Assembly: GCA_035489575.1 (NCBI GenBank)
Contig: DATHJY010000004.1
Location: 91,483 to 155,482, forward strand
Origin: Verrucomicrobiia bacterium
GTDB lineage: Bacteria; Patescibacteriota; Saccharimonadia; Saccharimonadales; JAGQNK01
Reading direction: 5' to 3'
Length of the DNA stretch: 64,000 nucleotides
The number at the start of each line of letters is the position of its first letter. Position 1 is the stretch's first letter. Position numbers and translations under genes: made by a program. Positions 3,120-57,962 of this stretch are shown piece after piece. Below the pieces are notes generated by a model, which did no database searches, was not told the DNA's origin, and saw only the letters and a program-made list of their open reading frames with translations.

Positions 3120-5447
3120 ATGGAAAATCCTAAGAATCAAATAGCAGAGCGTATAAAAGAGGCAAGCAATGTCTTGGTGACTGTTAGTGCCAACCCTTCG
3201 GTTGACCAACTGTCGGCGGCCATTGGCTTGACCCTACTACTGAACAAGCTGGACAAGCACGCCTCGGCTGTTTTTAGTGGGCAGGTGCCATCTACTCTTG
3301 AGTTCCTCAAGCCAGACGAAACACTCGAGAAAAATACCGATTCTTTGCGTGACTTTATTATTGCTCTGGACAAGTCCAAGGCTGACAAACTGCGCTACAA
3401 GGTCGAAGACACTATGGTCAAGATCTTTATTACTCCGTACCGTACATCTATCGGCCAGCAGGATCTTGAGTTTAGCCAGGGCGATTTCAACGTCGACGTG
3501 GTTATTGCACTAGGTGTCCATAGCAGGGAAGAGCTAGATCAAGCCATTACCGCTCATGGCCGTATCTTGCATGATGCAACAGTGGCAAGCATCAACACCA
3601 ACAGCGAGGGTGCCGATGTAGGCAGCATGAACTGGGCTGACGCCAAGGCTAGCAGTTTATGCGAGATGGTGGTGTCACTGGCCGAACTGGTCAAGGCCAA
3701 TTCGCTAGACGCCCAAATGGCGACCGCACTATTAACAGGTATCGTTGCCGAAACCGACAGATTCAGTAACCAAAAAACTACCTCGGTCACCATGAGTGCC
3801 AGTGCCAAACTGATGACAGCCGGTGCCAACCAGCAGCTGGTGTCGTCCAAACTGGAACAGCCCGAAGAGCTACCGCCAGCAGAACCGCTCGCCAAAAAAG
3901 AACCCAAGAAGGGCGCCAAAGATAAGGACCAGAAACCACCAGAAGATGCAGCGAGCGGTGATGGATCGTTACGGATCGAGCACGACGAAGAACCAGAAGC
4001 GCCCGAGCCCCCTGCAGAAGAACCGGCAAAGCCAATCGAACAGATAAAGATTGACGACCAAGGGCAGATGCTCCCCATGGAGCCACCTCAACTACCGCCA
4101 CCACCTCCACCCGAACCCCCTCATGAAGAACCCCCGGCGCCTCCACCACCCCCGCCTTTGCCCCCAATGAACGAGCCAACTCTGCCACCTCCAGTGCCAA
4201 AATCAGAGGCACATATCAAGGTGGATAGTCGTGACTTCCTAGAGCAGCCACCACTGACCCAGCGCCTTGAAGATGCCATGCAAACTACCATGCCCCAGGT
4301 ACCCGGCGAACTCGGCCTTGCGCCACCACCCGACGAAGACACGGGCTACGATCCAACAGGGGGGTCGCTCAACCTGCCGGCGGTGAATACGCCGCTACTC
4401 AAGCACAATTCTGGCGCGGCCCACACCAATGATGAACCCTTGCCTCCACCTCCACCTCTACCCCCGCGCCCTAAAGCACCAGAACCAAAACCTGAGCCAC
4501 CTCAACTACCGCCACCACCTCCACCCGAACCCCCTCATGAAGAACCCCCGGCGCCTCCACCACCCCCGCCACCGGCGCCCGAACCACTGCCTCCGCCACC
4601 ACCACCTCCTGTACCACCAAAACCGCCAGAGCCACAGCTGCCCCAGGCGGTCATTGACGTTATGGACGATCGCACCCTGAAGGAGCTTGAGCGGGTTGTA
4701 GATAGTCCACACCGCACCGCATCTGCCAAAGTAGGGGAGGGCAAGACCCTCAAGGCCTTAGAGCAGACTTTTAATAGCCCTCATCTCACCGCACCGCCAC
4801 CGGCGCCCGAACCGCTATTTCCTCCACTCCCAGCCCCGGGCAGTGCTGCACCCAAAAAAGACGACGACATGGCCCTAGACTACGAGGCTATAGACTCTGA
4901 GCCACCTGAACATGCCGACAAGCCAGATCCTAAAAAAGATGCAGCCGACAATCCCAGCCCAGCTGATGACCTGGGGGCTCCTGAAGTAACAGACGTACCA
5001 GTTCTGACCATACCTGGCAGTGCGCCAGTGGCCCCGGCCGATGACGTCACGCTCCCAGCCGCCGTTACTGATGGTGCGGACACCAATCAGCCACTAGCGG
5101 ACGCCCCGACAGGCGGCACCAACCTGGACGAACTGCCAACAGAAACCAATGCCCGTGACCAGGTAGCAGCAGCCCTGGCAGCCGCTAGCGGTACAGAACC
5201 CTTAGAGCCGCCAGCCGCCATGGGAGCTTCGCCGCTTTCGGAGATAGAACACCAAAAACCCGGCGCTCACATAGATATTGATAAAGACGGTACCGTCAGC
5301 TTCCCGCAGACGTTGGTACCAGAGTCAGACAGCTTGCCGCCAGACGATACAGCGGCTCCGGCCAGCGACGCCACCGCACCACCGACTATGCCACCACCCA
5401 TCATGCCACCGGTACCTTCTGCCGATAGCAGCTCCCCGGCTTCCTAG
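3120..5447 (+). CDS. degenerate DHH/NrnA-like N-terminal domain fused to ~500-aa proline-rich region
   Basis: ATG at 3120 (MENPKNQ...) is preferred over the upstream track start. N-terminal blocks align to the DHH layout (VLVTVSANPSVDQLSAAIGL, DVVIALGV, LLTGIVAETDRFSN), but the DxD/DHH acidic and His residues are replaced. The rest is PPPPxP low complexity. Confidence 0.7.
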   Translation: MENPKNQIAERIKEASNVLVTVSANPSVDQLSAAIGLTLLLNKLDKHASAVFSGQVPSTLEFLKPDETLEKNTDSLRDFIIALDKSKADKLRYKVEDTMVKIFITPYRTSIGQQDLEFSQGDFNVDVVIALGVHSREELDQAITAHGRILHDATVASINTNSEGADVGSMNWADAKASSLCEMVVSLAELVKANSLDAQMATALLTGIVAETDRFSNQKTTSVTMSASAKLMTAGANQQLVSSKLEQPEELPPAEPLAKKEPKKGAKDKDQKPPEDAASGDGSLRIEHDEEPEAPEPPAEEPAKPIEQIKIDDQGQMLPMEPPQLPPPPPPEPPHEEPPAPPPPPPLPPMNEPTLPPPVPKSEAHIKVDSRDFLEQPPLTQRLEDAMQTTMPQVPGELGLAPPPDEDTGYDPTGGSLNLPAVNTPLLKHNSGAAHTNDEPLPPPPPLPPRPKAPEPKPEPPQLPPPPPPEPPHEEPPAPPPPPPPAPEPLPPPPPPPVPPKPPEPQLPQAVIDVMDDRTLKELERVVDSPHRTASAKVGEGKTLKALEQTFNSPHLTAPPPAPEPLFPPLPAPGSAAPKKDDDMALDYEAIDSEPPEHADKPDPKKDAADNPSPADDLGAPEVTDVPVLTIPGSAPVAPADDVTLPAAVTDGADTNQPLADAPTGGTNLDELPTETNARDQVAAALAAASGTEPLEPPAAMGASPLSEIEHQKPGAHIDIDKDGTVSFPQTLVPESDSLPPDDTAAPASDATAPPTMPPPIMPPVPSADSSSPAS
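4080..4156 (+). repeat. 77-bp perfect intragenic direct repeat, copy 1
   Basis: gagccacctcaactaccgccaccacctccacccgaaccccctcatgaagaacccccggcgcctccaccacccccgcc is identical to 4494-4570. It encodes EPPQLPPPPPPEPPHEEPPAPPPPPP. Confidence 0.9.
4494..4570 (+). repeat. 77-bp perfect intragenic direct repeat, copy 2
   Basis: Identical to 4080-4156 and offset by 414 bp, so in frame. Confidence 0.9.
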
Positions 5448-10142: not shown

Positions 10143-10162
10143 TCTTGCCTAACAGATAGGAG

Positions 10163-13928: not shown

Positions 13929-16043
13929 ATGAACAAACCAACTAATCAGAATAAACGCGGCCAAGGCGGAGCCCCTGCACGGGGTCGCACCAGACCTTTG
14001 GTGGGTGGAGCACCCGTACGCAGCGCCAGCCGCGGTGCTGCTATCCGCGCCCAGAAACGTACCCATGACGATGCCCAACGGGTTATCAGCCAATACCTAG
14101 AAGTGCCTGAAAAATCAGAAGGCAAGCGCCCCCAGCGGGCCAACTTTATCGACGACAATCCCCGCCTCAAGATCATCGGACTCGGTGGCATGGACGGTGG
14201 TGGGTCAAAGAACATGGTCCTGGTCGAATACATGAACGACGCCGTAATTATCGACGCCGGAAACGACCTAGGGGTCGACCTGCCAGGTATCAACTACGGC
14301 ATTTGCGATGTTAGCTATGTCGAATCTATCAAGCACAAGTTGCGCGGCTACATTATTACGCATGGCCACCTGGACCACATTGGTGGACTGCCGCACATTG
14401 TACCCAAGCTACCAGCACCTATTTATGGCTCACGCTTCTCCATTGGACGCGTAGAAGAAATCTTCCAGAACTTTGGGCTGCCTATGCCCGAAGGCTTCAA
14501 CCTAGAGACCGTGATCATGAACGAAAACACGCACGAGCGACTCAAGGTCGGACCGTTCTTTGTGGAACTCGTACGCGTTACGCACTCCATACCTGGCAGC
14601 ACCGTGGTGGTGCTCGATACTCCAGTAGGTCGCATCGTCAACACTGGTGACTTCCGTCTGGACCCTAATCCACTAGACCACGAGCGTACGGATATCGAAC
14701 GGCTCAAGCAACTGGGCGACGAAGGTGTGCTGGCGCTGCTCAGCGAGAGCACCACTACCGACCGTCTGGGTCGCACGCCATCAGAGAGCACCATCGAACA
14801 GAGTTATGTAGACATCATGGACAAAGCCCCAGGACGTATCTTTGTGGCTATCTTTAGTACTAACGTCAACCGCGTGCAGATGATCGTGAATGCTGCCGTA
14901 CACCACAACAAAAAGATCGCCCTAGATGGCCGCAGTATGATCAGTACCCTAGAAATGGCAGTGCGCAACGGCTTTATCAAGATTCCCAAAGGGACATTTG
15001 TGCCCATTTCTACCGTGCCCAATCTAAAAGACCAAGACGTCGTAGTAGTATGTACCGGTGGACAGGGCGAGCCCAGCAGTGCCTTGCAGCGCATGGCCAG
15101 TGGCGACCACAAGCACGTCAAACTAAAAGAGCAAGACACCGTTATCCTCAGTAGTACGCCTATCCCAGAGAGTGGCAACGACGCGCTTATTTCTGCCATG
15201 GTAGACAACCTGATGCGCAAGAATGTGCATGTTTTCCAGCACATCACCCACGAACTAGACGGCAACGGACCGCTGCACGTGTCTGGTCACGCTAGTATCG
15301 ACGAATATGCTGACATGATTAATATGACCAAGCCCAAATATTTCATTCCGATTTATGGGTCTTACTATAAAAAACAGCGCCACATAGAAATCGCAATAGA
15401 GAACAACATCCCGCGCAAAGATTGCGTAAATGCCGAGAACGGCGACATAGTAGAACTGTCACCAGACGCCATCCAGATTACCGGTAAAGTACCAGTTGGT
15501 ACTGTGTTGGTAGACCAGTCTGGTGCCATCGTTAGCAGCGTGGTTATCAAGGACCGCCTGATGTTGGCAGAAGAAGGCTTGGTAGCCATTGTTCTAACCA
15601 TAGACAAAAAGACCGGCAACCTGCTTACTAGCCCAGATATCATCAGCCGTGGTTTCATATATATGCGCGATAACGAAGAGCTCATGAACGCTTTCCGTAT
15701 AGAGCTGAAGCGGGCAGTCAGCCAGCGCTTTAAGCGAGTAGATCTGGACCGATTCAAGCTAGAGCTCAAAGAGCATGTCACCCATTTCTTGTTCGAGTAC
15801 ACCCAGCGCAGTCCAATTGTCATACCTGTTGTGAATGTCATCGCAGGCAAGGGCGGTAATGGCGGTAATGGTAATGGCACTGCTCCTGCTGCTGCAGGAA
15901 CAGCTCCTGGTAAAAAACAGGCTCCCGGTACTCCTCCTCCGCCTCCAGCCGAACCAACCCCAGACGAGATTGCCGCCGAACAACAGCGCCGCTTCGAAGA
16001 AATGCGTGCCCGCCTCCTTGGCCAAGACGCCCGCACAGACTAG
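13929..16043 (+). CDS. rnj: ribonuclease J with basic N-terminal and Gly/Pro-rich C-terminal extensions
   Basis: Metallo-beta-lactamase motif ITHGHLDHIGG, a beta-CASP layout and HVSGHAS. About 70 aa of RG-rich leader and about 70 aa of low-complexity tail. Confidence 0.9.
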   Translation: MNKPTNQNKRGQGGAPARGRTRPLVGGAPVRSASRGAAIRAQKRTHDDAQRVISQYLEVPEKSEGKRPQRANFIDDNPRLKIIGLGGMDGGGSKNMVLVEYMNDAVIIDAGNDLGVDLPGINYGICDVSYVESIKHKLRGYIITHGHLDHIGGLPHIVPKLPAPIYGSRFSIGRVEEIFQNFGLPMPEGFNLETVIMNENTHERLKVGPFFVELVRVTHSIPGSTVVVLDTPVGRIVNTGDFRLDPNPLDHERTDIERLKQLGDEGVLALLSESTTTDRLGRTPSESTIEQSYVDIMDKAPGRIFVAIFSTNVNRVQMIVNAAVHHNKKIALDGRSMISTLEMAVRNGFIKIPKGTFVPISTVPNLKDQDVVVVCTGGQGEPSSALQRMASGDHKHVKLKEQDTVILSSTPIPESGNDALISAMVDNLMRKNVHVFQHITHELDGNGPLHVSGHASIDEYADMINMTKPKYFIPIYGSYYKKQRHIEIAIENNIPRKDCVNAENGDIVELSPDAIQITGKVPVGTVLVDQSGAIVSSVVIKDRLMLAEEGLVAIVLTIDKKTGNLLTSPDIISRGFIYMRDNEELMNAFRIELKRAVSQRFKRVDLDRFKLELKEHVTHFLFEYTQRSPIVIPVVNVIAGKGGNGGNGNGTAPAAAGTAPGKKQAPGTPPPPPAEPTPDEIAAEQQRRFEEMRARLLGQDARTD

Positions 16044-16095
16044 CTTAAGAGGAGATGACTCCACGTCGAGGCCAAGCCTGAGCTATAATTTGAGC

Positions 16096-16704
16096 ATGCA
16101 GACAAAGGGTGAACTCATAACCGGGCGACAGGCAAAGACTTACGATTATCGCGGTGCAGTATGGAATCGCATCAAGGCAAGACATCTGACCTTGGTCAAT
16201 CCTCAGCCTGGGCAGCGTGTCCTGGATGTGGGGTGCGGTACGGGCAGGACTCTGCAACTGCTGAGTCAAAAGTGTGACAAGGGCGTACAGCTCTACGGGC
16301 TTGAGCCGTCACCCGATATGCTTGAGCGAGCACGGGCAGGGCTCGGGAAACGGGCCCAGATTCGGCAGGGGTTTGCTCAAGAGTTGCCGTATCCCACTGC
16401 TCATTTTGATTTCGTTATAAGTACTCAGGTGCTACACCATATCCCTCTGGTAGGAAAAAAAGAAATGCTATCAGAAATGCACCGCATATTAAAACCGGGC
16501 GGCACGCTGGTATTGAGCGATTGGGGTAAGCCTACGACTACCTTGGGTAAAATCATAGGGCTCTTATGGCGTAACCATGCCTACGTACAAGCCAACAGAA
16601 ATATCCTCACTACAGGCTTTCTCCAGACTATAGACCTCAATACGCACGAGATTGTGCAGTTCGGAGTAGTACACCACCTAGTGGGCAAAAAGCAGAGAGA
16701 GTAG
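16096..16704 (+). CDS. class I SAM-dependent methyltransferase
   Basis: VLDVGCGTGRT is the SAM-binding motif I. I chose the in-frame ATG at 16096 (MQTKGEL) because the track ORF start at 15835 overlaps rnj. Confidence 0.75.
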   Translation: MQTKGELITGRQAKTYDYRGAVWNRIKARHLTLVNPQPGQRVLDVGCGTGRTLQLLSQKCDKGVQLYGLEPSPDMLERARAGLGKRAQIRQGFAQELPYPTAHFDFVISTQVLHHIPLVGKKEMLSEMHRILKPGGTLVLSDWGKPTTTLGKIIGLLWRNHAYVQANRNILTTGFLQTIDLNTHEIVQFGVVHHLVGKKQRE

Positions 16705-16720
16705 CTGACATGCATGTATA

Positions 16721-16839
16721 ACCTGAATCCCGAAACTCAATTTAACAGAGGTAGGTGAAAATGAAAGTCTACTCACCCCAACAGAGACGGCAACTTCACC
16801 CAAATCCTTATAACAGGGGTGTAGTTTCGGGATTCAGGT
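16721..16839. mobile_element. MITE-like element (119 bp), perfect 17-bp TIRs, 6-bp TSD TGTATA
   Basis: acctgaatcccgaaact (16721-16737) is the exact reverse complement of agtttcgggattcaggt (16823-16839). tgtata flanks both ends (16715-16720 and 16840-16845). Confidence 0.7.
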
Positions 16840-16866
16840 TGTATAAACTTGATAAAAGTACAGTTT

Positions 16867-16877
16867 TATGCTATATT
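16867..16877 (+). promoter_or_regulatory. extended -10 element (TATGCTATATT)
   Basis: Recurrent motif, 26 nt upstream of the ATG at 16903. Confidence 0.4.
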
Positions 16878-16902
16878 AAAATAGTTGAAACGAAAATAAA
16901 AA

Positions 16903-17889
16903 ATGGAAAATCTACTTCCCAATACAGCTCACGAAGTACCTCTTGTGCCCTCTGGGGCTGAGGTTCGGGAACCCTTGGATCGGCTAAGTGATGAAGAGTT
17001 TTTGCAAGCCTCACAGGAGTTCGGCAACACATACGCTGCACTGGTACGAGGAGAGGCGGTCGACGACTTTCCAGCTTCGGCAGAGGTGCAGGCAACCCTT
17101 GATGCTGCCGGTCAAAAACTAGAGGGTCTGGATGAGTCTCAGCGCGCGAAAGTAGTTATTGGTCAGTATCGAAGCGTGCTCAGAGAAGCCTACGAAGCTG
17201 CAGGACACGAGCCGCCTATCGATAGTGGCGAGCCGGATGAAGCAGCGCTTGCATCCGTAACTAGAGTAGAGCAGGGTCCTTACGGTACACAGATTGTATA
17301 CACTAATGGCAAGCAGAACGAGGCGTTGTTTGGTAGTGATAGCCTCGCGTTTGCTGCCTCAGAGGCCATGCTCCAGCACTATAACACCCCTATAGTGGTG
17401 GTGTACGAAGGATATGGTGACAACGAGAAGCAAGAGGTCATGACACATGAAACCAGCCATGCCGTATGGGGAGTGCTGCGTGCCAGTGGCGTGATACCTT
17501 CACCCCAGGGTGAGGACGATCGTGCGGGTGCCGGCCGTTCGGCATTCGAGCTTGCCCGAGACGAAGCGGCCGCCCTGATGGTGGCTGGTCAGAGGAAGAT
17601 AGTTCATTCCAATGTCGTGACCCGCATGGAACAGGAAGGGTATAGCGCCGAACAGGTTGAAAGGTATCGTGCTCTGGGCGAGGGTTTTAATGCAATGGCC
17701 GTCCAGGATAAGCCCATAGAACTTTCTAGTGCGTTGCTCGGTATAGTATCTGCCCGGACCTTTGATGAGCTAGAGGTAAACATGACCAGGTTGGCTCGAC
17801 TAACCCAGGCCCTTCCGGGAGTAGAGAAACCGGCAAATGACAGTGCAGAAGTCGAAACGCCCGATGAAGCACCTATGTGGACCCTCTAG
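16903..17889 (+). CDS. HExxH-motif protein, putative zinc metallopeptidase-like (328 aa), paralog group member 1
   Basis: MTHETSHAVWG contains HExxH, followed by FELARDEAAAL. No signal peptide. The gene is flanked by MITE-like elements. Confidence 0.6.
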   Translation: MENLLPNTAHEVPLVPSGAEVREPLDRLSDEEFLQASQEFGNTYAALVRGEAVDDFPASAEVQATLDAAGQKLEGLDESQRAKVVIGQYRSVLREAYEAAGHEPPIDSGEPDEAALASVTRVEQGPYGTQIVYTNGKQNEALFGSDSLAFAASEAMLQHYNTPIVVVYEGYGDNEKQEVMTHETSHAVWGVLRASGVIPSPQGEDDRAGAGRSAFELARDEAAALMVAGQRKIVHSNVVTRMEQEGYSAEQVERYRALGEGFNAMAVQDKPIELSSALLGIVSARTFDELEVNMTRLARLTQALPGVEKPANDSAEVETPDEAPMWTL

Positions 17890-17899
17890 GTAGAAGAGT

Positions 17900-18023
17900 A
17901 CCTGAATCACGAATTAGAACCCCTGTTAAATTACAGATAGGATGTATCCGAATCAGGCCCCCTTATCTGTCGGAAAAGCACAAGAGAATCAGACTAACAG
18001 ATAGGCTAATTCGTGATTGGGGT
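17900..18023. mobile_element. second MITE-like element (124 bp), 18-bp TIRs with 2 mismatches
   Basis: acctgaatcacgaattag (17900-17917) versus the reverse complement of ctaattcgtgattggggt (18006-18023) gives 16/18 matches. No clear TSD. Confidence 0.5.
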
Positions 18024-18032
18024 GCGTAAATA

Positions 18033-18061
18033 TTGAATTATCTTTGTAAAAATGGTATAGT
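18033..18061 (+). promoter_or_regulatory. sigma70-like promoter (TTGAAT-17-TATAGT)
   Basis: An AT-rich promoter immediately upstream of the high-GC lipoprotein gene. Confidence 0.4.
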
Positions 18062-18135
18062 TTGCACGACTCTATCAGAGTTTTGTTTGCCCAAGAAGTG
18101 CAAGTTCGTACCCGAAATTACAGAGAGGAGCGGCA

Positions 18136-18636
18136 GTGTCCGCTTTTCAATCTCCTGGCCGCCGAGTGCTGCTGGGTGTCCTGGTTCTCCTGGCCCTCGC
18201 GGTCTCCGCCTGTGGTGGCGACGCTGGTGCCAGTGGCAGCCGACCCAATGCCAACCGCAACGTCCAGACCTTCGACGACGTGCGGGATGACTACACCTTC
18301 ACCGCCGAGGACTACAGCGACGAGATCCTGGACTACGCCGAGGATTTTCCCGAGCTCGACTTCCTGAACAACCGGGACCTCCTGGACAACGTGGCTTGGC
18401 TGTGCGCCGAGGTGGACGTCACGGGTGTTCAGACGGTGACCGCGGTCGACCGACTGGCTGCCAAGATCGGCCACCGGTGGCCGGAGGACCTGGATCCGCT
18501 GGCTGAAGCTGCCGGTTCGTACGTCTGTCCCGGCGTGATTAGCGACTACTACGTCGTCGACCCCTACGGCTACCGCGACTACATCGTCGAGGAAGATCCT
18601 TTCTTCGGCGATGATGGCTACTACGACGACTTCTAG
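18136..18636 (+). CDS. putative secreted lipoprotein, Asp/Tyr-rich (166 aa), high-GC gene
   Basis: GTG start preceded by agaggag. The signal peptide ends in lipobox LAVSAC. GC3-rich codon usage is unlike the neighbouring genes. Confidence 0.6.
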   Translation: MSAFQSPGRRVLLGVLVLLALAVSACGGDAGASGSRPNANRNVQTFDDVRDDYTFTAEDYSDEILDYAEDFPELDFLNNRDLLDNVAWLCAEVDVTGVQTVTAVDRLAAKIGHRWPEDLDPLAEAAGSYVCPGVISDYYVVDPYGYRDYIVEEDPFFGDDGYYDDF

Positions 18637-18939
18637 AGCCGTCGGCGATAGAAACATCTGATAGGGAACCGCGCGTGGCGTTGGTGGCAATTGACTGGAG
18701 GACATCCTTCATCAAGACCCATCAATGCCCCGCGCGACCCACCCACGATTATTATTTTTGAAGATTCGCTGCCAATACAGCTCATCAGTACAGCTTGAGA
18801 TTACTATCTCTACTCTGCAGTCTTCGGGTGGATGGTCTCTTGTGGTTCAGGGGGCGCTAGTGGCGTCCAACGAATCATAAAGACCACCCACCCGGTGATT
18901 TGATATCTGGTCACCACTCCAGAGGCGCTGTACTGGCGG

Positions 18940-19344
18940 CTAACTGATGGGGCCTGACATCGGGGTCTGACAGTTTTGGCAGAAGTACCGGCCGGGCGCA
19001 TTGATCTTTCCGCATACTCGGCAGGTTGGGGAGGAGGTTTTCTTTTCTTCCAGAGAGGATGAGGTGGGCAGGGTGCCGAGTGGTTCTGGGGACGGCATGG
19101 GTGGGTAGATGACGTTCGTGCCTTCGGGATCTTTTTCTCGTGAAGCAGCATTCACAAGGGCTACCATGGCAGCAACAAAGCAGGCGACCATGATCAGCAC
19201 CAGGGGGATGGGGAGTTGACCGGCGTCCAGCCGTAATCCAATCCAGGCCACCAGTGTCACAAGCAGCACACCAACAAGACAACGTCCCGCCACGGCAGGT
19301 GTCATGTCTGTACCTCTTTCTAAGATGTGAGCTAACCAAGCCAA
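18940..19344 (-). CDS. membrane protein with C-terminal zinc-ribbon (CxxC...CxxC)
   Basis: Two hydrophobic helices followed by CRVCGKINAPGRYFCQNC. The start is uncertain; MTPAVAG at 19305 is also possible. It lies in the high-GC segment. Confidence 0.5.
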   Translation of the reverse strand: MAWLAHILERGTDMTPAVAGRCLVGVLLVTLVAWIGLRLDAGQLPIPLVLIMVACFVAAMVALVNAASREKDPEGTNVIYPPMPSPEPLGTLPTSSSLEEKKTSSPTCRVCGKINAPGRYFCQNCQTPMSGPIS

Positions 19345-19466
19345 CCTTGGTCAGTACAGCTACTGATGCGTTTTTCAGCGCAGGAGTACTATGATTATAC
19401 AATGTTACTGTCATAGCAGCGAGGTGGGTGCCAAGACTGCCGGCCAGCTGCGTTAAAAACATAACC

Positions 19467-20376
19467 CCGTGAATCACGAAACCCCCAACACATAAAGCAC
19501 CCGTTTTGCTACTCTTGAAGTGCTAGCTAAAAGAGGAAACAAACATGAGTGCTTTACAAAAACATCATATCGTCGATCTGTTTGTTTGGGTAGACGAATG
19601 TCTACCCAAACACGAGCCTTATCCGTTCGGTGGTCGTCCTTCGGCTCTCCGGGATAGTGAGCTGCTCACTATCCTCATCTGGGACGGCCTCAACGAACCG
19701 CACAAAACACTCAAGGCCATTCATTCCTGGATACGGCGGGATTATGGAGATTACTTTCCTCACCTGCCCAAGTACCAGAACTTTGTGGCTCACTGCCACC
19801 GGCTACTGCCAGCTATGATCTGGCTGTTGCAGTCCTTGCTGCGCTACGATGCGGCCCTGCGCTTTGCCGACAGCACCATGCTGGAAGTATCCAAGAACCA
19901 CCGAGCCGACCACCACAAGGTTGCCCGAAGTGTGGCCGCCTGGGGCAAGAACTGGCAGGGCTGGCACTACGGCTTCAAGCTGCACGCCAGCATTGACCAG
20001 AACAACAACCTAACTGGTATCTGTTTCACCCCGGCCAATGGCTATGACGCTCAACACATGGAGCAACTGGCGAAAGGCGCGACCAAAGTCCTCGTTGGCG
20101 ATAGCCACTACGGAGCCAGCCCGATGAGAAGGCGGCTCTGGAAGAAGCACGGCATTATTGTTATTGCACCGCCGCACTACAAACAGCGCAAGAAGCTCAT
20201 GAGCGGAATGCAATTCCTACTCCTGAATATGCGGTCCAAGATTGAAGCGACCTTCGACTACCTCAAGGAGCACATGCACCTGGTTAGCTCGTTCCCGAGG
20301 AGCGTGAACGGCTACGCCGTTCACTACCTACGGACGCTGCTCGGTTACCAGATGGGGAGGGTTTCGTGATTCACGG
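19467..20376 (+). mobile_element. insertion sequence (910 bp), IS982-like / IS5-superfamily DDE type
   Basis: Perfect 18-bp terminal inverted repeats: ccgtgaatcacgaaaccc (19467-19484) and gggtttcgtgattcacgg (20359-20376). The 6-bp direct repeat ataacc flanks both ends (19461-19466 and 20377-20382). Confidence 0.85.
19545..20369 (+). CDS. DDE transposase (274 aa)
   Basis: The blocks ADSTMLEV, WHYGFKLHASID, VLVGDSHYG and RSKIEATFDYLK resemble IS982/IS5-type DDE transposases. The ORF ends inside the right TIR. Confidence 0.85.
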   Translation: MSALQKHHIVDLFVWVDECLPKHEPYPFGGRPSALRDSELLTILIWDGLNEPHKTLKAIHSWIRRDYGDYFPHLPKYQNFVAHCHRLLPAMIWLLQSLLRYDAALRFADSTMLEVSKNHRADHHKVARSVAAWGKNWQGWHYGFKLHASIDQNNNLTGICFTPANGYDAQHMEQLAKGATKVLVGDSHYGASPMRRRLWKKHGIIVIAPPHYKQRKKLMSGMQFLLLNMRSKIEATFDYLKEHMHLVSSFPRSVNGYAVHYLRTLLGYQMGRVS

Positions 20377-20385
20377 ATAACCAGA

Positions 20386-20414
20386 TTGACAAACGTTGTA
20401 ATTTTTGTTATAAT
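20386..20414 (+). promoter_or_regulatory. consensus sigma70 promoter TTGACA-17-TATAAT upstream of ftsK
   Basis: ttgaca at 20386-20391, a 17-nt spacer, then tataat at 20409-20414. The 9-bp inverted repeat gttgtaatt/aattacaac (20395-20403 and 20412-20420) overlaps the -10. Confidence 0.55.
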
Positions 20415-20507
20415 TACAACATGAAAGTTAGTACAAAAACAAGGGTAACTAGCCGCCAACATACCCCTGGTATAACAGGGTAAAACGGTATACACTAGGT
20501 AGCGCAT

Positions 20508-22718
20508 ATGGCTAAAAAAAGACAGACCAGAAAGAAAAAAATCGAACCAGAGGTAGCAGAGAAGTCTCCCTTTTTGCCGTTGGCCGGGGCTATCTTGTTA
20601 TTCATCGCTGCTTTCTTCTTGCTGCTGGGTGGCTTTGGTAGTGGTGGTCCACTGCCTATTGGCATGTTCCACGGAGCCTACTGGGCACTGGGGTGGGGAG
20701 CCTACCTGACACCACTCGCACTTATATTCTTTGGACTTTGGAAGTTCACCAGCGAAGGCCACCGTATTCCAGTGCAGAAGCTTATCGGCATGGTGACGCT
20801 ACTGATCTTTCTGGCCGCTTGGTTGCACGTAGCCTTTGTTACTAAGCATGCCGCCGAGGCATTTGTTGGTGGCCACGGCGGGGCCGCCGGACTTGGGCTG
20901 GGTGGTCTGGTACTGAACGCACTAGACAAGGTGCCAGCCTCTATCCTGTTCTTGGTGTTGGCAACTCTTATGTTTTTCCTGACCTTTGGCATCTCGCCCA
21001 AGGTGCTGATGAACTTGCTCAACATCTTTAAGCGTCCAGAATCTGATGACACTGACCTGGCTGAGCTGAAGGCTCGGGCCGCCGACAATGGCTTTAAACT
21101 GAACGAAGGGGTGCCGGTAGAACACCACAACGCTCGCGACCGAGCGCGCATGAGTAGCCTTAAGAATACTGCCGCCAAACTGTCCCCGCCCGAAGACCAC
21201 GCTGCTCTGACGGCCGCCAGCGATCCAAACTGGCAGTTTCCACCTATGAGCTTGCTAAATCAAAAGCAGGACAAGGCCGACGCCGGCGACGTAGAAGGCA
21301 ACGCCGAGGCTATCAAAGAAACCTTTGCCAACTTCAATATAGATGTCGAGATGGAAGGTGCCAATATTGGCCCGCGGGTAACCCAGTTCACTCTCAAGCC
21401 GCCTAATGGCGTCAAGCTGACCAAGATGACCGCCCTAGAGAACAACCTAGCTCTGGACTTGGCAGCACATTCTATCCGCATGGAAGCACCTATCCCCGGC
21501 AAACGTGCTGTGGGTGTAGAAGTGCCCAATGTTAAATCTGCCACTGTACGAATCAGCAGCCTGTTGCAATCCAACGAATGGAGCTCGGTGGATAGCCCCT
21601 TGGGCTTTGTGATCGGTAAGGATATCGCCGGTCAGCCTGTAGTGGGCAATTTGGGTAAGATGCCCCACTTATTGGTTGCTGGTCAGACGGGTTCCGGTAA
21701 GTCGGTCATGATCAACGCCATTCTGACGAGCTTGCTGTACCGCAACAGTCCCTCGGACCTCAAACTGATTCTGGTGGACCCCAAACAGGTAGAACTGAAG
21801 CCTTATGATGACATCCCACACTTGCTGACACCGGTCATAACTGAACCAGAAAAGTGCATCAGCGCCCTCAAGTGGACGGTGGCCGAGATGGAACGCCGCT
21901 ACAAAGCCCTCAGCGATGTACACCGTCGCAATATCGTAGAATACAACGCACTCAAAAAAGAAGAGGGCATGCCTTACATTGTGGTGGTTATAGACGAATT
22001 AGCCGACCTTATGATGATGGCCGCCCGTGATGTCGAGGCTCTAGTAGTGCGTATTGCCCAGAAGGCTCGGGCCGTGGGCATCCACCTGGTGCTGGCCACG
22101 CAGCGTCCGTCTGTCGATGTTATCACCGGACTTATCAAGGCTAATGTACCAGCTCGTATCGCCTTTACCACAGCCAGCCAGGTAGATTCACGCACTATCA
22201 TAGACCAAATGGGTGCCGAGAAGCTGCTGGGCATGGGTGACATGCTACTGCTGACTGCCGACATGCCCAAACCCAAGCGCGTTCAGGGTGCTCTGATAGA
22301 CGACAACGAAACTCTGAAAGTTACTGACTTTATTCGCCAGCAGCGTCCACCACAGTACGACGAAGAGATCATCAGCCAACCCGTCCAGCTGAACGGCAAA
22401 GGTGGTATCGTGGCTGATCCGAGTGCTGGTGACGACACCAACGATCCCCTGTATAAAGACGCCGTCCAGGCTGTTATAGACGGTCGCAAAGCTAGTACCA
22501 GTCTGTTGCAGCGTCGCCTGCGCATAGGCTACGGCAAGGCTGCACGATTTATCGAAACCATGGAAGAGCAGGGTATTATCAGCTCCGCAGATGGCAATCG
22601 TCCCCGCGAAGTGCTGGTGACTTCACTAGACGAAGTCTTTGGCGGTGGTGCAGCGGCACCCATTCAGGCACTTGCTACAGATGCCGTCCTAGACGAAAAC
22701 TTCCCCGAAGAGGCGTAA
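20508..22718 (+). CDS. ftsK: DNA translocase FtsK/SpoIIIE
   Basis: N-terminal TM helices, Walker A GQTGSGKS, VVVIDELADLMM, and a C-terminal gamma winged-helix (LLQRRLRIGYGKAARFIE). Confidence 0.95.
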   Translation: MAKKRQTRKKKIEPEVAEKSPFLPLAGAILLFIAAFFLLLGGFGSGGPLPIGMFHGAYWALGWGAYLTPLALIFFGLWKFTSEGHRIPVQKLIGMVTLLIFLAAWLHVAFVTKHAAEAFVGGHGGAAGLGLGGLVLNALDKVPASILFLVLATLMFFLTFGISPKVLMNLLNIFKRPESDDTDLAELKARAADNGFKLNEGVPVEHHNARDRARMSSLKNTAAKLSPPEDHAALTAASDPNWQFPPMSLLNQKQDKADAGDVEGNAEAIKETFANFNIDVEMEGANIGPRVTQFTLKPPNGVKLTKMTALENNLALDLAAHSIRMEAPIPGKRAVGVEVPNVKSATVRISSLLQSNEWSSVDSPLGFVIGKDIAGQPVVGNLGKMPHLLVAGQTGSGKSVMINAILTSLLYRNSPSDLKLILVDPKQVELKPYDDIPHLLTPVITEPEKCISALKWTVAEMERRYKALSDVHRRNIVEYNALKKEEGMPYIVVVIDELADLMMMAARDVEALVVRIAQKARAVGIHLVLATQRPSVDVITGLIKANVPARIAFTTASQVDSRTIIDQMGAEKLLGMGDMLLLTADMPKPKRVQGALIDDNETLKVTDFIRQQRPPQYDEEIISQPVQLNGKGGIVADPSAGDDTNDPLYKDAVQAVIDGRKASTSLLQRRLRIGYGKAARFIETMEEQGIISSADGNRPREVLVTSLDEVFGGGAAAPIQALATDAVLDENFPEEA

Positions 22719-33048: not shown

Positions 33049-34117
33049 ACCGAAACTCCACAACATCATCAGGTTGCATGATATAGGTTTTGCCCTCGGT
33101 ACGGACCTTGCCCGCGGCCTTGGCGGCAGCTTCCGAGCCAGCAGCTAGTAGGTCGTGATAGTCGACAATCTGGGCGGCGATAAACCCACGCTCGAAATCG
33201 CCGTGAATAACACCGGCGGCTTGCGGGGCGGTAGCGCCTTTGCGTACGGTCCAGGCCCGTACCTCTTGCTCGCCTGCGGTCAGGTAGCTTTGCAGACCCA
33301 GTGTGTCATAGGCGGTATGGGTCAGCTGTACCAGACCGGACTGGTGTACGCCGTAACTCTCTAGCAGTTCGCTGCGGTCTGTGTCGTCCAGGCCCTTTAG
33401 CTCAGATTCTAATTTGGCACATACAAAGACTGCCTGCGCGGGCTTTACCATATCAGACAGCTGCTGCTTCTTGGATTCATCTGCCAGCGCTTCTTCGTCG
33501 ACGTTGAACAAGTAAATAATCGGCTTGGCTGTCAGAAGCTGCAGGTCTGCAATGTGCTCCATGTCCAGGCCGTCTAGGGCAGACAGGGGCGTCCCTTCAT
33601 TAAGCGTGTCGTGAACCATCTGCAGCGTTTCGGCCAGGGGCCGTAGCTTGGGGTTGGCCCGGGCTTCTTTGTCTACGCGGGGCAGGCGCTTCTGGACGGT
33701 TTGCAGGTCTGCTAGCACCAGTTCGGTGTTGATGACGTCTATGTCTTTCTGGGGGTCATGCTGGTCGTCCACATGTTGCACGTTGGGGTCGCTAAAGGCC
33801 CGCACCACATGACAAATAGCATTGCAGCTCCGGATATTGGCCAGGAACTGGTTGCCCAGGCCCTCGCCCTGAGAGGCGCCAGCCACCAGACCGGCTATGT
33901 CAACAAAGGTAACCGTTGCGGGCACTATTTTTTTGCTGTTATACAGGTCGGCTAATTTCTGCAGCCTGTTGTCTGGCAAGGGGACAATGCCAGTGTTGGG
34001 TTCTATGGTGGCAAAAGGATAATTGGCTGCCAAAATGTCGTTGTCAGTCAGGGCGTTGAACAGCGTAGACTTGCCAACATTTGGCAGACCCACAATTCCA
34101 ATTTGAAGTGAACTCAT
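33038..34117 (-). CDS. ychF: ribosome-binding ATPase YchF
   Basis: IGIVGLPNVGKSTLFNALT P-loop, a TGS-like C-terminus and a length of 359 aa. Confidence 0.95.
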   Translation of the reverse strand: MSSLQIGIVGLPNVGKSTLFNALTDNDILAANYPFATIEPNTGIVPLPDNRLQKLADLYNSKKIVPATVTFVDIAGLVAGASQGEGLGNQFLANIRSCNAICHVVRAFSDPNVQHVDDQHDPQKDIDVINTELVLADLQTVQKRLPRVDKEARANPKLRPLAETLQMVHDTLNEGTPLSALDGLDMEHIADLQLLTAKPIIYLFNVDEEALADESKKQQLSDMVKPAQAVFVCAKLESELKGLDDTDRSELLESYGVHQSGLVQLTHTAYDTLGLQSYLTAGEQEVRAWTVRKGATAPQAAGVIHGDFERGFIAAQIVDYHDLLAAGSEAAAKAAGKVRTEGKTYIMQPDDVVEFRFNV

Positions 34118-34125
34118 ATGTAGCT

Positions 34126-34176
34126 ATTCTAACAGAGGTAGCGCTAGTTGACAAATAAGCATAAGTGTGATAATAT
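34126..34176. promoter_or_regulatory. back-to-back divergent promoters with overlapping -35 boxes
   Basis: Plus strand: ttgaca (34148-34153), 17 nt, taatat (34171-34176). Minus strand: ttgtca (complement of 34149-34154), 17 nt, TGtTAGAAT (complement of 34126-34134). The -10 ends 8 nt before the ychF ATG. Confidence 0.5.
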
Positions 34177-35067: not shown

Positions 35068-35103
35068 AATAGCCGCGCTTGTTTTGTAGTTTGGGCATAC
35101 GGA

Positions 35104-35190
35104 GTTTTAGCTCAAAAGGCAATTGGGTTAAAGCTTTAGTATGCCTATAGATAAACTCATACAATGTCTATTCTAACAGAGGTAGCGCTA
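35104..35190 (-). pseudogene. decayed copy of ychF promoter + first codons (copy B)
   Basis: Shares the exact 23-mer ctattctaacagaggtagcgcta with the real ychF upstream region (34124-34146). The minus strand reads ATGAGTTTATCTATAGGCATACTAAAGCTTTAA = MSLSIGILKL*, compared with YchF MSSLQIGIVGL. Confidence 0.55.
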
Positions 35191-35956: not shown

Positions 35957-35971
35957 CTTATTGTATACACT

Positions 35972-36054
35972 GTTTGAGCCCAGAAGGCAGTTGGGTTAAA
36001 ACTTTAGCATGCCTATAGATAAACTCATACGATGTCTATTCTAATAGAGATATA
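35972..36054 (-). pseudogene. decayed copy of ychF promoter + first codons (copy C)
   Basis: An ungapped hand alignment to 35104-35186 gives 72/83 identities. The minus strand reads MSLSIGMLKF*. Confidence 0.5.
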
Positions 36055-57055: not shown

Positions 57056-57565
57056 GTGGAAAAAACGCTGGTTATCTTTAAACCCGACGCAGTAATGCGC
57101 GGCCTAGTCGGTGAGATTCTGTCGCGGTTTGAAAAGGTAGGGCTCAAGATAGTCGGGGCCAAAATGTTGCAGCCAGATTACGAACACTACTTTAGGCATT
57201 ACGAGGGAATCGGAACACTCAAAACTCGCAAGGGAGAAACCATATTTGAGAGCACGCTTGCCTCAATGTTGGAAGGGCCAGTGGTAGCCATGGTTCTCGA
57301 GGGTGTAGATGCCGTGGAGCTTGTTCGCAAAATGGTTGGGGGCACCGAGCCCAAGAGTGCGCAGCCAGGAACAATCCGGGGCGACTATGCACACGTTTCT
57401 TACGGCCAAGCATCCACAGTTGGTAAGGGGGTCGCTAACATCATTCACGCTTCGGCCGATACCAAAGAAGCCACTGCCGAGATCAATCACTGGTTTGCAG
57501 ACATCGAACTCTACGATTACGAAAGCGTGCACCAGCGGTTTACACAGCCAGCTCCTAAGAAGTAG
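57056..57565 (+). CDS. ndk: nucleoside-diphosphate kinase
   Basis: The GTG start gives EKTLVIFKPDAV, then GTIRGDY and NIIHASAD (active-site His). Confidence 0.9.
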   Translation: MEKTLVIFKPDAVMRGLVGEILSRFEKVGLKIVGAKMLQPDYEHYFRHYEGIGTLKTRKGETIFESTLASMLEGPVVAMVLEGVDAVELVRKMVGGTEPKSAQPGTIRGDYAHVSYGQASTVGKGVANIIHASADTKEATAEINHWFADIELYDYESVHQRFTQPAPKK

Positions 57566-57583
57566 GATGTTCTGTCGGTTTCG

Positions 57584-57850
57584 GGAGGGTTGCTAGCAGA
57601 ACTAGCCCTCTTCGGAGGGATTCGCCTCGGGCCGAGCGCAAAATGCGCTGGCCTATTCGACCCCAAACATGCCATCAGGCGTCTTTGGGGCTACGGGTCC
57701 GGGGTGAGAAATGCCCGATGGCATTTCGCAAGGCCGGAAGCCCGGATGGCGAAGCCACCGAGCTGAGGCGGGCCCGCGAAATTCGCCAAAGGCGAATATT
57801 TGTGGGAGCCGTCAAGGGCTGTCCCGTTCGAATCCCTCGCCGCGGTCCCA
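57584..57850 (+). ncRNA. unassigned GC-rich structured RNA candidate (or structured ndk 3' UTR) ending in a tRNA 3'-end mimic
   Basis: No credible ORF. Contains a C(UUCG)G hairpin ccctcttcggaggg (57606-57619), local hairpins (agcgc/gcgct, ccccaaa/tttgggg, attcgcc/ggcgaat), and atgccatc...gatggcat pairing. It ends ...gttcgaatccctcgccgcggtccca and a terminator follows. Strand and identity are uncertain. Confidence 0.3.
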
Positions 57851-57885: not shown

Positions 57886-57962
57886 TGGTGACCCGGGAGG
57901 GATTCGAACCCCCGACGCCCGCCTTAGGACGGCGGCGCTCTATCCAGCTGAGCTACCGGGCC
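57886..57962 (-). tRNA. tRNA-Arg (anticodon CCT), CCA encoded
   Basis: Hand-folded cloverleaf: acceptor GGCCCGG/CCGGGUC (one G-U), D arm GCUC/GAGC, anticodon stem CCGCC/GGCGG with loop GUCCUAA, T arm GGGGG-UUCGAAU-CCCUC, discriminator A plus CCA. Total 77 nt. Confidence 0.9.

Follow-up and report, generated by a model that had tools for sequence, protein, structure and literature searches.

We argue that three separate insertions of IS982-family elements, each brought about by promoter-proximal targeting, account for the arrangement described here (with a probability of about 0.8), and that the apparent bracketing of a gene for an HExxH protein by two of them is a by-product. The window, i.e. 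the whole stretch of DNA analysed, 64 kb in length, belongs to a genome of the Saccharimonadales (Saccharibacteria). The three elements, two short ones (e1 and e2) and a full insertion sequence (IS), lie in the interval between the genes for RNase J and FtsK, where the gene order is methyltransferase gene, e1, HExxH gene, e2, lipoprotein gene, zinc-ribbon-like gene, IS. The features are the following:

16044-20507, no strand: variable interval from RNase J to ftsK, 4.46 kb
16715-16720, no strand: left copy (TGTATA) of the e1 target-site duplication, read from the sequence and identical to 16840-16845
16721-16839, no strand: e1, IS982-family MITE, 119 bp, with 17-nt perfect terminal inverted repeats
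16840-16845, no strand: right copy (TGTATA) of the e1 target-site duplication, likewise read from the sequence
16849-16877, plus strand: predicted HExxH promoter, TTGATA, 17 nt, TATATT, with an upstream TG; 10/12 consensus matches
16903-17889, plus strand: HExxH gene, 328 aa, putative gluzincin-like zinc peptidase of a rare, unannotated family
17900-18023, no strand: e2, relic of an IS982-type MITE, 124 bp, ...CACGAATTAG subfamily; single copy, no target duplication
18033-18061, plus strand: predicted lipoprotein promoter, TTGAAT, 17 nt, TATAGT, with TG
18136-18636, plus strand: putative lipoprotein gene, 166 aa, signal peptide ending in ...LAVSAC
between the lipoprotein gene and the IS, minus strand: zinc-ribbon-like gene, 121 aa
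19461-19466, no strand: left copy (ATAACC) of the IS target-site duplication, identical to 20377-20382
19467-20376, plus strand: IS982-family IS, 910 bp, with 18-nt perfect inverted repeats CCGTGAATCACGAAACCC
19545-20369, plus strand: DDE transposase, 274 aa (NCBIfam IS982 and Pfam DDE_Tnp_1_3)
20377-20382, no strand: right copy (ATAACC) of the IS target-site duplication, 6 bp
20386-20414, plus strand: predicted ftsK promoter, TTGACA, 17 nt, TATAAT; 12/12 consensus matches

The initial annotation was right in placing two inverted-repeat elements of 119 and 124 bp around the HExxH gene; its spacings of 64 and 11 nt, however, are to be corrected to 63 nt between e1 and the ATG (16903) and 10 nt between the stop codon (17889) and e2. 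Element e1 is a true MITE, mobile and probably young. Its terminal repeat is perfect over 17 nt (ACCTGAATCCCGAAACT / AGTTTCGGGATTCAGGT), and the presence of TGTATA on both sides indicates that it was inserted at its present site. A second copy, 98% identical, is found in the opposite orientation at positions 4501-4620 of an unrelated locus, L007, with other flanks and another duplication (TGCCGG); it is this copy, together with the 6-bp duplication in the window, that shows e1 to be mobile. The tetranucleotide profiles of L007 and the window correlate with r = 0.83, as compared to 0.88 between the two halves of the window. These are the two known e1 loci, with unitigs broken at both ends of the element: Logan unitigs stop at 16749 and restart at 16810, i.e. 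29-30 nt inside the tips, as is to be expected at a repeat with k = 31. The tips and subterminal sequence of e1 resemble both ends of the IS at another locus, L070, and, folded as RNA, the element reaches -42.7 kcal/mol (z = -5.1).

Element e2 is probably an old MITE of a different subfamily. Its tips, ACCTGAATCACGAATTAG and (reverse-complemented) ACCCCAATCACGAATTAG, match at 16 of 18 positions, and its fold has z = -4.2, with no T-run following the hairpin. The flanks, AAGAGT on the left and GCGTAA on the right, form no duplication, the 1.56 Mb of fetched loci contain neither a second copy nor a relative, and unitig L003 passes through the element unbroken. Another unitig break falls inside e2, at 17992, and could reflect either a second copy or a strain SNP. 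The right tip, ACCCCAATCACGAATTAGCCT, is similar both to the left ends of P0125-type IS (ACCCGAATCACGAATTAGCCTC) and to the tips of P0103/P0094-type IS (ACCCCAATCACGAA). The possibility that this tip (GATTGGGGT) has merely decayed was rejected, since two IS species naturally carry tips of the ACCCCAATCACGAA type. The two tips of e2 are of different types, and the element would have lost its left duplication; the left flank, on the side of the HExxH gene, was probably replaced through a later deletion or a recombination between elements. The mobility originally attributed to both elements is borne out for e1; e2 is a relic. A restriction of the elements to this locus, named at the outset as an argument against mobile DNA, does not apply to e1; for e2, the loci covered gave this one copy.

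The full IS displays hallmarks of the IS982 family, namely, a length of about 1 kb, inverted repeats, a short duplication and a transposase that scores 140 bits against the NCBIfam IS982 equivalog NF033520 (cut-off 130) and 3.5e-28 against Pfam DDE_Tnp_1_3. A copy with 100% identity is present at locus L091 and an IS-only contig, L093, was found as well; contigs break exactly at the ends of the window IS. The IS is located 1.44 kb from the e1/e2 pair, so that the compatible IS reported at 1.4 kb is real. The relatedness of the termini also holds: with at most 2 mismatches allowed, the shared tip motif ACCTGAATCNCGAA has 7 occurrences in the window, as against 1.1 expected and a count that none of 100 shuffles reached, and 6 of the 7 occurrences are ends of e1, e2 or the IS. 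Both short elements possess IS-like terminal inverted repeats that match the tips of transposase-bearing IS, and neither contains an ORF with a family match, so that they are non-autonomous, as first proposed, and related to IS of the IS982 family; a duplication of the same length as that of the IS (6 bp) is found in e1 but not in e2. The tips start with AC in the MITEs and in six related IS species, and with CC in the window IS, the tip type of which differs from those of both e1 and e2. At L070, the IS and its MITE have identical 17-nt tips. Scanning the contigs of GTDB representative genomes for ACCTGAATCNCGAANNNNNNCCCCTGTTA gave 0 matches, which shows that the source genome is not one of these representatives, and scanning metagenome contigs gave 5; the metagenome matches in L006 and L009, which lie inside genes, were discarded as chance, and scans of viral contigs with the e1 and e2 tips yielded only chance matches in coding DNA.

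The position of the elements relative to the downstream promoters, all three of which are scanner predictions, is constant: the distance from the element tip to the -35 hexamer is exactly 9 nt for e1 (HExxH gene), for the right tip of e2 (lipoprotein gene) and for the IS (ftsK). The ftsK promoter (TTGACA..GTTGTAA..TGCTATAAT) is conserved in L044, L034 and L080, where no element occupies it. All three elements fall within 3.7 kb of a 64-kb window that contains about 18 strong promoter-like sites, and this clustering is more than targeting alone explains. TAACAG motifs, considered as a possible regulator site, are more likely the reverse strand of an extended -10 (TGnTAnAAT), as for instance upstream of the gene that starts at 34117.

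The same register is observed well beyond the window. When seven related IS species are taken together with their MITEs, all 22 insertions for which the duplication could be matched carry a one-sided TTGACA-like hexamer, in the order duplication, about 3 nt, hexamer; upon reading by hand, 18 of 18 duplication-matched insertions were positive on exactly one side, in either orientation of the IS, and the hold-out species P0129, picked after the hypothesis had been formed, was positive in 4 cases out of 4. The discovery set was drawn from the window, L005, L007, L008, L070 and another five IS species and contained 54 unique outward flanks, the tips being located by a regular expression derived from the family consensus. 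A match of at least 5/6 to TTGACA was found at offset 10 in 16 of these flanks, at offset 11 in 2 and at offset 12 in 1, and at almost all other offsets (1-26) in 0-2 of the 54. In an earlier set of 53 flanks, 15 had the hexamer at offset 10 (background rate 0.0049, binomial P = 1e-22); positive flanks numbered 27, about one per insertion, and a -10 match of at least 4/6 at a spacing of 16-18 nt accompanied 21 of the 27 positive flanks versus 4 of the 26 negative ones. The flanks all come from metagenome contigs, several of which are chimeric across IS copies (e.g. L109, L115, L133), and some left-right pairings were rebuilt by matching duplications across contigs.

The hexamer belongs to the target rather than to the element because the flanks differ between copies of one and the same IS. 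The converse, TTGACA as part of the element, was considered and rejected: the hexamer lies outside the duplications, and both the 9 nt that precede it and the sequence that follows vary between copies. A few positives (L094 with TTGCAG, L091 with TTTACA, and L005) show no good -10 or suitably oriented gene after the hexamer, and hence recognition may depend on a TTG-type sequence and not on a functional promoter. Negative orphan flanks, the other side of which was not seen, are those of L132, L138 and L112 and the left flank of the L070 MITE; three copies of the Lactococcus IS982 lack the hexamer pattern. The rule, i.e. duplication, 3 nt, TTGACA, does not appear in the review of the IS982 family (PMC7335449) or in the other papers searched.

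The interval that received the three insertions is variable and lineage-specific. The genes for UDG and RNase J are adjacent in 80 of 80 Saccharimonadales relatives, and FtsK comes next wherever the locus is long enough, with a gap between RNase J and FtsK of about 0.13-5 kb. At that interval, none of the 80 relatives has homologues of the window's gap genes, including the HExxH gene (tblastn, 1e-5), and e1 and e2 are absent from all of them. In L070, an IS982-type IS and its cognate MITE are located directly 3' of RNase J. Look-ups with the methyltransferase and the lipoprotein retrieved no empty-site allele of the locus, the lipoprotein has no match in Pfam, and the region 16400-20600 has none in Rfam at the gathering score.

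Could the two elements, as the initial annotation suggested, be the ends of a 1.3-kb composite transposon that carries the HExxH gene and is mobilized by a transposase acting in trans? Inverted-repeat elements flank cargo in Tn5, in Tn10 and in Acinetobacter integrons located between two identical MITEs, and such composite units consist of two copies of one element, have a single duplication around the whole unit and recur at several sites. The window resembles these systems in having two inverted-repeat elements, both of the IS982 type, on either side of one gene, with an IS of the same family nearby and in an interval that is absent from the relatives; moreover, the lack of a duplication at e2 implies that something was rearranged on its left side. 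Nevertheless, a composite origin seems very improbable. The intact duplication on both sides of e1 is that of an in-situ insertion, whereas transposition of the whole unit would have left a fresh duplication at its outer borders, where the sequences are TGTATA and GCGTAA. Unlike the ends of the known composites, e1 and e2 differ: the outer tips, ACCTGAATCCCGAAACTC and ACCCCAATCACGAATTAG, agree at only 11 of 18 positions, being the least alike pair, and fall into separate subfamilies (...CGAAACT versus ...CGAATTAG), the window IS shows a third tip type, and e2 has neither a duplication nor a second copy. The unit is unique: when the gene was sought elsewhere, as had been proposed, the exact protein was found on 6 contigs, every one of which is the same locus, and L144, which encodes a 40% homologue, has no e1/e2-like elements nearby. 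Finally, e1 and e2 both lie where elements of this family regularly come to rest when they insert independently, 9 nt before a -35 hexamer, and three successive genes, each with its own promoter, provide a simpler cause. Even less credible is the notion that e1 and e2 are conserved hairpins of the host, such as attenuators, terminators or operator sites. The long hairpins, their regulatory positions just 5' of promoters and the TGnTAnAAT-like motifs inside them, which are also seen in other intergenic regions, would fit this notion; it is contradicted by the absence of both elements from the 80 syntenic relatives, by the duplication of e1 and its inverted copy at an unrelated locus, by tips that match transposase-bearing IS elements, and by the lack of an Rfam match and, for e2, of a T-run. 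The conserved hairpins that the initial annotation envisaged in relatives were thus not found.

A more serious contender, although still an unlikely one, is random insertion followed by purifying selection, which would leave elements only upstream of -35 hexamers without any target specificity. The compact genomes of Saccharibacteria offer few places where an insertion is harmless, among them the stretch just 5' of a promoter, and a few flanks indeed lack the motif. However, selection predicts a spread of distances, whereas the observed register is fixed at the duplication plus 3 nt (tip + 10, rarely + 11 or + 12), and other offsets show no enrichment. In addition, the pattern persists in L094 and L091, where a good -10 or a suitably oriented gene is missing, and the Lactococcus IS982 copies do not display it.

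Under the preferred reading, i.e. three independent, targeted insertions, the order at each site would be element tip, 6-bp target duplication, 3 nt and the -35 hexamer of an intact sigma-70-type promoter. It is probable that this Saccharibacteria clade of IS982 transposases, together with its MITEs, selects the target via the -35 hexamer and cuts 3 bp upstream of TTGACA. The transposase complex would make a staggered cut of 6 bp (occasionally 7-8 bp) at this distance from the TTGACA-like hexamer, a geometry that would put the element at about -45 and leave the gene and its promoter intact; conceivably, elements can land safely at this position where genes are densely packed. The hexamer may be read by the transposase directly or by way of sigma factor or RNA polymerase bound to the promoter. 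On this view, the HExxH gene would owe its bracketed appearance to two circumstances: it and its downstream neighbour have promoters of their own, and the IS clade has a preference for sites immediately 5' of promoters.

Promoter-directed integration is well known among the retroelements of yeasts, namely Ty3 and Ty1 at Pol III genes and Tf1 at Pol II promoters, the integrases of which are tethered by transcription factors. The window elements resemble these in the fixed short distance upstream of a promoter element, the sparing of coding sequence and the compact genome, and differ in that the enzyme is a bacterial DDE transposase, not a retroelement integrase. If the rule is true, it would represent a bacterial DDE-transposon counterpart of promoter-tethered retroelement integration in yeast, and would let mobile DNA survive in genomes that are very small and densely packed with genes; it would help explain the survival of IS in CPR genomes of roughly 1 Mb that have almost no spare DNA. 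The ends of the elements would then come to lie in the region normally taken up by promoter UP elements and activator sites, and an insertion could for this reason retune the promoter. The rule is sharp and testable, concerns a little-studied IS family, suggests a compact promoter-directed insertion activity that is amenable to in vitro work, and could be of use in annotation for locating promoters and the ends of IS and MITEs in Patescibacteria.

The IS982 family, as reviewed in PMC7335449, consists of elements of about 1 kb with inverted repeats of 18-35 bp and 5'-AC ends, which produce short duplications and are often located in promoter regions. The window IS, with its model-passing DDE transposase and short duplication, and its relatives, of about 0.9-1 kb with 17-18-nt inverted repeats, mostly 5'-AC, conform to this description, but the window transposase shares no more than 32% identity with the IS982-family transposases of plasmids, i.e. 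below the 35% that separates clusters in the review (PMC7335449). The review also describes variable duplications and hybrid promoters (ISAba825, IS1187), with no fixed-register target (PMC7335449); unlike in these hybrid promoters, the element here does not enter the promoter and keeps the same distance to the -35 throughout. According to the accessible part of the report on the Cardinium endosymbiont cOegib, an IS982-derived MITE of ~240 bp is very abundant there and has repeats like those of the resident ISCca4, and no target register is reported in that part (PMC9769881). Judged by the same part, e1 and e2 are similar to this MITE in being short, devoid of a transposase and equipped with IS982-like inverted repeats, and dissimilar in their size (119 and 124 bp), low copy number and occurrence in a free Saccharibacteria lineage (PMC9769881).

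As to the HExxH gene itself, the result removes a false lead, namely that of packaged mobile cargo: it is an ordinary, though rare, accessory gene of a variable interval and is not packaged for transposition. A word-index protein search, with the protein alone or as a profile, returned practically only the self-match, and no close paralogue was found. The protein has no sequence match in Pfam, NCBIfam or the PDB, and no significant Foldseek match in the PDB. A full HMMER scan of 1.84 billion representatives detected 16 other clusters of the family, the members of which are at most 47% identical. H182, E183, H186, E221 and R296 are invariant (H182, E183, H186 and E221 in 15 members), and the combination of the HExxH motif with a downstream Glu (E221), a candidate third ligand, suggests from sequence a putative gluzincin-like zinc peptidase. 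The AlphaFold2 model of the protein has a pLDDT of 84 and a pTM of 0.83.

The gene of the HExxH protein (16903-17889) is indeed located between two inverted-repeat elements with related tips, e1 and e2, which the initial annotation proposed as the ends of a composite-transposon-like unit. The tip motif is found seven times in the window, against 1.1 matches expected, and two of these matches delimit an insertion sequence (IS) of 910 bp downstream of e2. Each of the three elements is followed by a good sigma-70-type promoter, and the distance from the tip to the -35 hexamer is exactly 9 nt every time:

16721-16839: element e1, 119 bp, with perfect 17-nt terminal inverted repeats ACCTGAATCCCGAAACT; its tip at 16839 faces a promoter (TTGATA at 16849, 17 nt, TATATT) that serves the HExxH gene
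17900-18023: element e2, 124 bp, with tips ACCTGAATCACGAATTAG and ACCCCAATCACGAATTAG, alike at 16 of 18 positions; its tip at 18023 faces a promoter (TTGAAT at 18033, 17 nt, TATAGT) that serves the lipoprotein gene
19467-20376: window IS, 910 bp, with perfect 18-nt inverted repeats and the 6-bp duplication ATAACC; its tip at 20376 faces a promoter (TTGACA at 20386, 17 nt, TATAAT) that serves ftsK

The identification of e1 as a MITE and of its larger neighbor as an IS is supported by duplications, further copies and the IS982 model. Specifically, a perfect 6-bp direct repeat, TGTATA, flanks e1 (16715-16720 and 16840-16845) and equals in length the duplication of the window IS. A metagenome scan yielded a second e1 copy (locus L007, 4501-4620, 98% identity, opposite orientation) that is embedded in unrelated DNA and has its own 6-bp duplication, TGCCGG. 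The tetranucleotide signature of L007 correlates with that of the window at r = 0.83 (0.88 between the two halves of the window), and this locus probably comes from the same genome or a sister genome. In addition, independently made assemblies are interrupted at e1: one Logan unitig stops at 16749 and the next begins at 16810, positions 29-30 nt inside the e1 tips, as expected at a repeat with k = 31. Thus, e1 is a mobile element. The window IS encodes a 274-aa DDE transposase that scores 140 bits with the NCBIfam IS982 model (cut-off 130) and is multi-copy: an identical copy is found in a different context (L091), one contig (L093) consists of the IS only, and some contigs stop exactly at its ends.

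Element e2 differs from e1 in that it shows no target duplication (flanks AAGAGT and GCGTAA) and no relatives in 1.56 Mb of fetched DNA. Unitig L003 crosses e2 unbroken; in the same sample, e1 and the window IS are branch points. Nevertheless, both tips of e2 are natural types: ...AATCACGAATTAGCCT matches a related IS of the P0125 type at its left end, and ACCCCAATCACGAA is found as the tip of two other IS. In our reading, e2 is an old MITE from a subfamily other than that of e1, and its left flank was probably replaced later, through an adjacent deletion or recombination between elements. It starts 10 nt past the stop codon of the HExxH gene, which it does not truncate. The RNAs of e1 and e2 form long hairpins (z = -5.1 and -4.2, respectively), and neither element matches an Rfam family.

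The composite transposon failed every test that was run. The exact HExxH protein is present on six contigs, all of which represent this one locus, and the sole homologue with readable context (L144, 40% identity) has no such elements nearby, the closest family members being at most 47% identical. The outer flanks of the supposed unit differ (TGTATA at e1, GCGTAA at e2), its outer tips, which come from different subfamilies, are the least alike pair with 11/18 positions shared, and the TGTATA duplication of e1 itself indicates that this element inserted in situ. Hence, the composite reading is not supported. Future mobilisation of the gene with its flanking elements is conceivable, but nothing points to it. 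The bracketing of the gene arises as a side effect of a target rule that places these elements close to promoters.

The same 9-nt register is seen at the L007 copy of e1 (TGCCGG ACG TTGACT), at an IS next to RNase J in locus L070 (AACATA TGC TTGACA), at the end in L005 and at the MITE in L008. The discovery set was drawn from the window, these loci and five more IS species of the clade, with transposases 67-69% identical to that of the window IS. Among 54 unique outward flanks, hexamers matching TTGACA in at least 5 of 6 positions start 10 nt past the tip in 16 cases, at offset 11 in two and at offset 12 in one, with 0-2 matches at each remaining offset from 1 to 26; in an earlier set of 53 flanks, offset 10 accounted for 15 matches, where the background rate was 0.0049 (binomial P = 1e-22). 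In that set, 27 of the 53 flanks were positive, about one per insertion, and a -10 match of at least 4/6 at a spacing of 16-18 nt was found in 21/27 positive versus 4/26 negative flanks. With left and right flanks paired via their duplications and read by hand, the hexamer lies on one side and one side only in 18 of 18 resolved insertions, and it may be faced by either end of the IS. A hold-out IS species (P0129), picked after the hypothesis had been formed, was positive in 4/4 cases. Since copies of one IS differ on both sides of the hexamer, in the 9 nt that precede it as well as in the sequence beyond, the hexamer belongs to the target DNA and not to the element.

Flank reading must allow for short metagenome contigs (L109, L115, L133, L134 and others) that fuse the left and right flanks of different IS copies, with duplications that pair up across contigs; such contigs are either chimeras of the assembly or genuine rearrangements mediated by the IS. 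The P0125-type IS has three copies (L106, L110, L113) that share a right flank (AATAACAATTACGTCTATAT...) and differ in their left flanks, that of L113 also holding a degenerate IS tip, a pattern that suggests nested insertion into another repeat.

The flanks thus show a fixed register, in which a duplication of 6 bp (7-8 bp in some cases) is followed by about 3 nt and then by an outward-reading TTGACA-like hexamer. The transposition complex would cut 3 bp upstream of the hexamer, and the element would thereby land at about -45. Selection alone could be invoked to explain the fixed position of the insertions, but it is incapable of yielding a single offset. A few positive sites, in L094, L091 and L005, come without a convincing -10 element or a gene in suitable orientation. 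This speaks more for a TTG-type sequence being read directly than for the need for an active promoter, but tethering to a sigma factor or RNA polymerase is possible. The Lactococcus IS982 (termini ACCCGAATTGCTAGTT) shows neither such a motif nor duplications in three copies, so the rule looks clade-specific, as far as this small sample (n = 3) goes. Elements of the IS982 family land in promoter regions and make hybrid promoters, as with ISAba825 and IS1187 (PMC7335449), and an IS982-derived MITE is mentioned for Cardinium in PMC9769881. In the literature that we searched, no target rule with a fixed register that spares the promoter is described for the IS982 family, for which the rule appears to be new. 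Compared with family members on plasmids, the window transposase reaches no more than 32% identity, which falls under the 35% identity used as the threshold between IS982 clusters (PMC7335449).

All three insertions in the 64-kb window occupy neighbouring promoters in a stretch of 3.7 kb, although strong promoter-like sites number about 18 in the window; the clustering could be due to local hopping, to tolerance of an accessory island or to acquisition of the elements together. With RNase J (13929-16043) as query, 80 loci were retrieved (L010-L089, 69-81% identity), nearly all labelled Saccharibacteria or Saccharimonadales. UDG adjoins RNase J in 80/80 loci, and FtsK comes next where the locus is long enough, the gap between RNase J and FtsK measuring between about 130 bp and 5 kb, with differing contents. 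Homologues of the window methyltransferase, the HExxH protein, the lipoprotein and a 121-aa protein are absent from all 80 loci, and L070 has an IS982-type IS directly downstream of RNase J, as well as a 136-bp MITE with 17-nt tips identical to those of this IS, 2.4 kb beyond it. Therefore, the RNase J-ftsK interval (16044-20507 in the window) is a hotspot that varies across the order, with the HExxH gene as lineage-specific cargo. The ftsK promoter (TTGACA..GTTGTAA..TGCTATAAT) is conserved and unoccupied in three of the loci (L044, L034, L080). The NCBI record of the HExxH protein (P0001) is labelled Verrucomicrobiae bacterium; synteny and the RNase J identities place the contig in Saccharimonadales, so this label probably stems from a binning error, and the MAG is probably mislabelled or mis-binned.

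The HExxH protein (328 aa) represents a rare family, with 16 other clusters among 1.84 billion representatives, in which H182, E183, H186, E221 and R296 are invariant and a Trp close to the C-terminus is conserved. It has no sequence matches in Pfam, NCBIfam or PDB, and a Foldseek search of PDB with its confident AlphaFold2 model (pLDDT 84) gave no significant match; our best guess is a putative gluzincin-like zinc hydrolase.

The motif TAACAG(R)G(G) (reverse strand CCYCTGTTAnAAT) is located within e1 and e2, 35-45 nt inside IS left ends, and in intergenic regions at 10150, 20473, 34130, 35174, 38790, 46519 and 48896; in the MITEs, it could confer promoter-like activity. At 34117-34145, the motif reads as an extended -10 (TGTTAGAAT) with a start codon only 8 nt further on, which suggests short-leader or leaderless transcripts. 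An 88-nt repeat (35097-35184 and 35965-36052, 86% identical) and a related 36-nt piece (34124-34159) precede small neighbouring genes, which look like a small set of paralogues with a promoter or leader in common. Beside tRNA-Arg(CCT) (57886-57962, - strand), about 290 nt of GC-rich non-coding DNA (57565-57850, + strand) close with a T-arm and an acceptor 3' end that resemble those of a tRNA (GTTCGAATCCCTCGCCGCGGTCCCA, 57826-57850), followed by a hairpin with a T-run; neither ARAGORN nor Rfam finds a tRNA or tmRNA there, and a divergent tmRNA or some other tRNA-like RNA may be encoded. Finally, C-rich direct-repeat families at 4080-4837 (GC skew -0.30), in which a 77-nt sequence at 4080 recurs exactly at 4494 and has many 44-nt relatives, presumably encode a proline-rich repeat protein.
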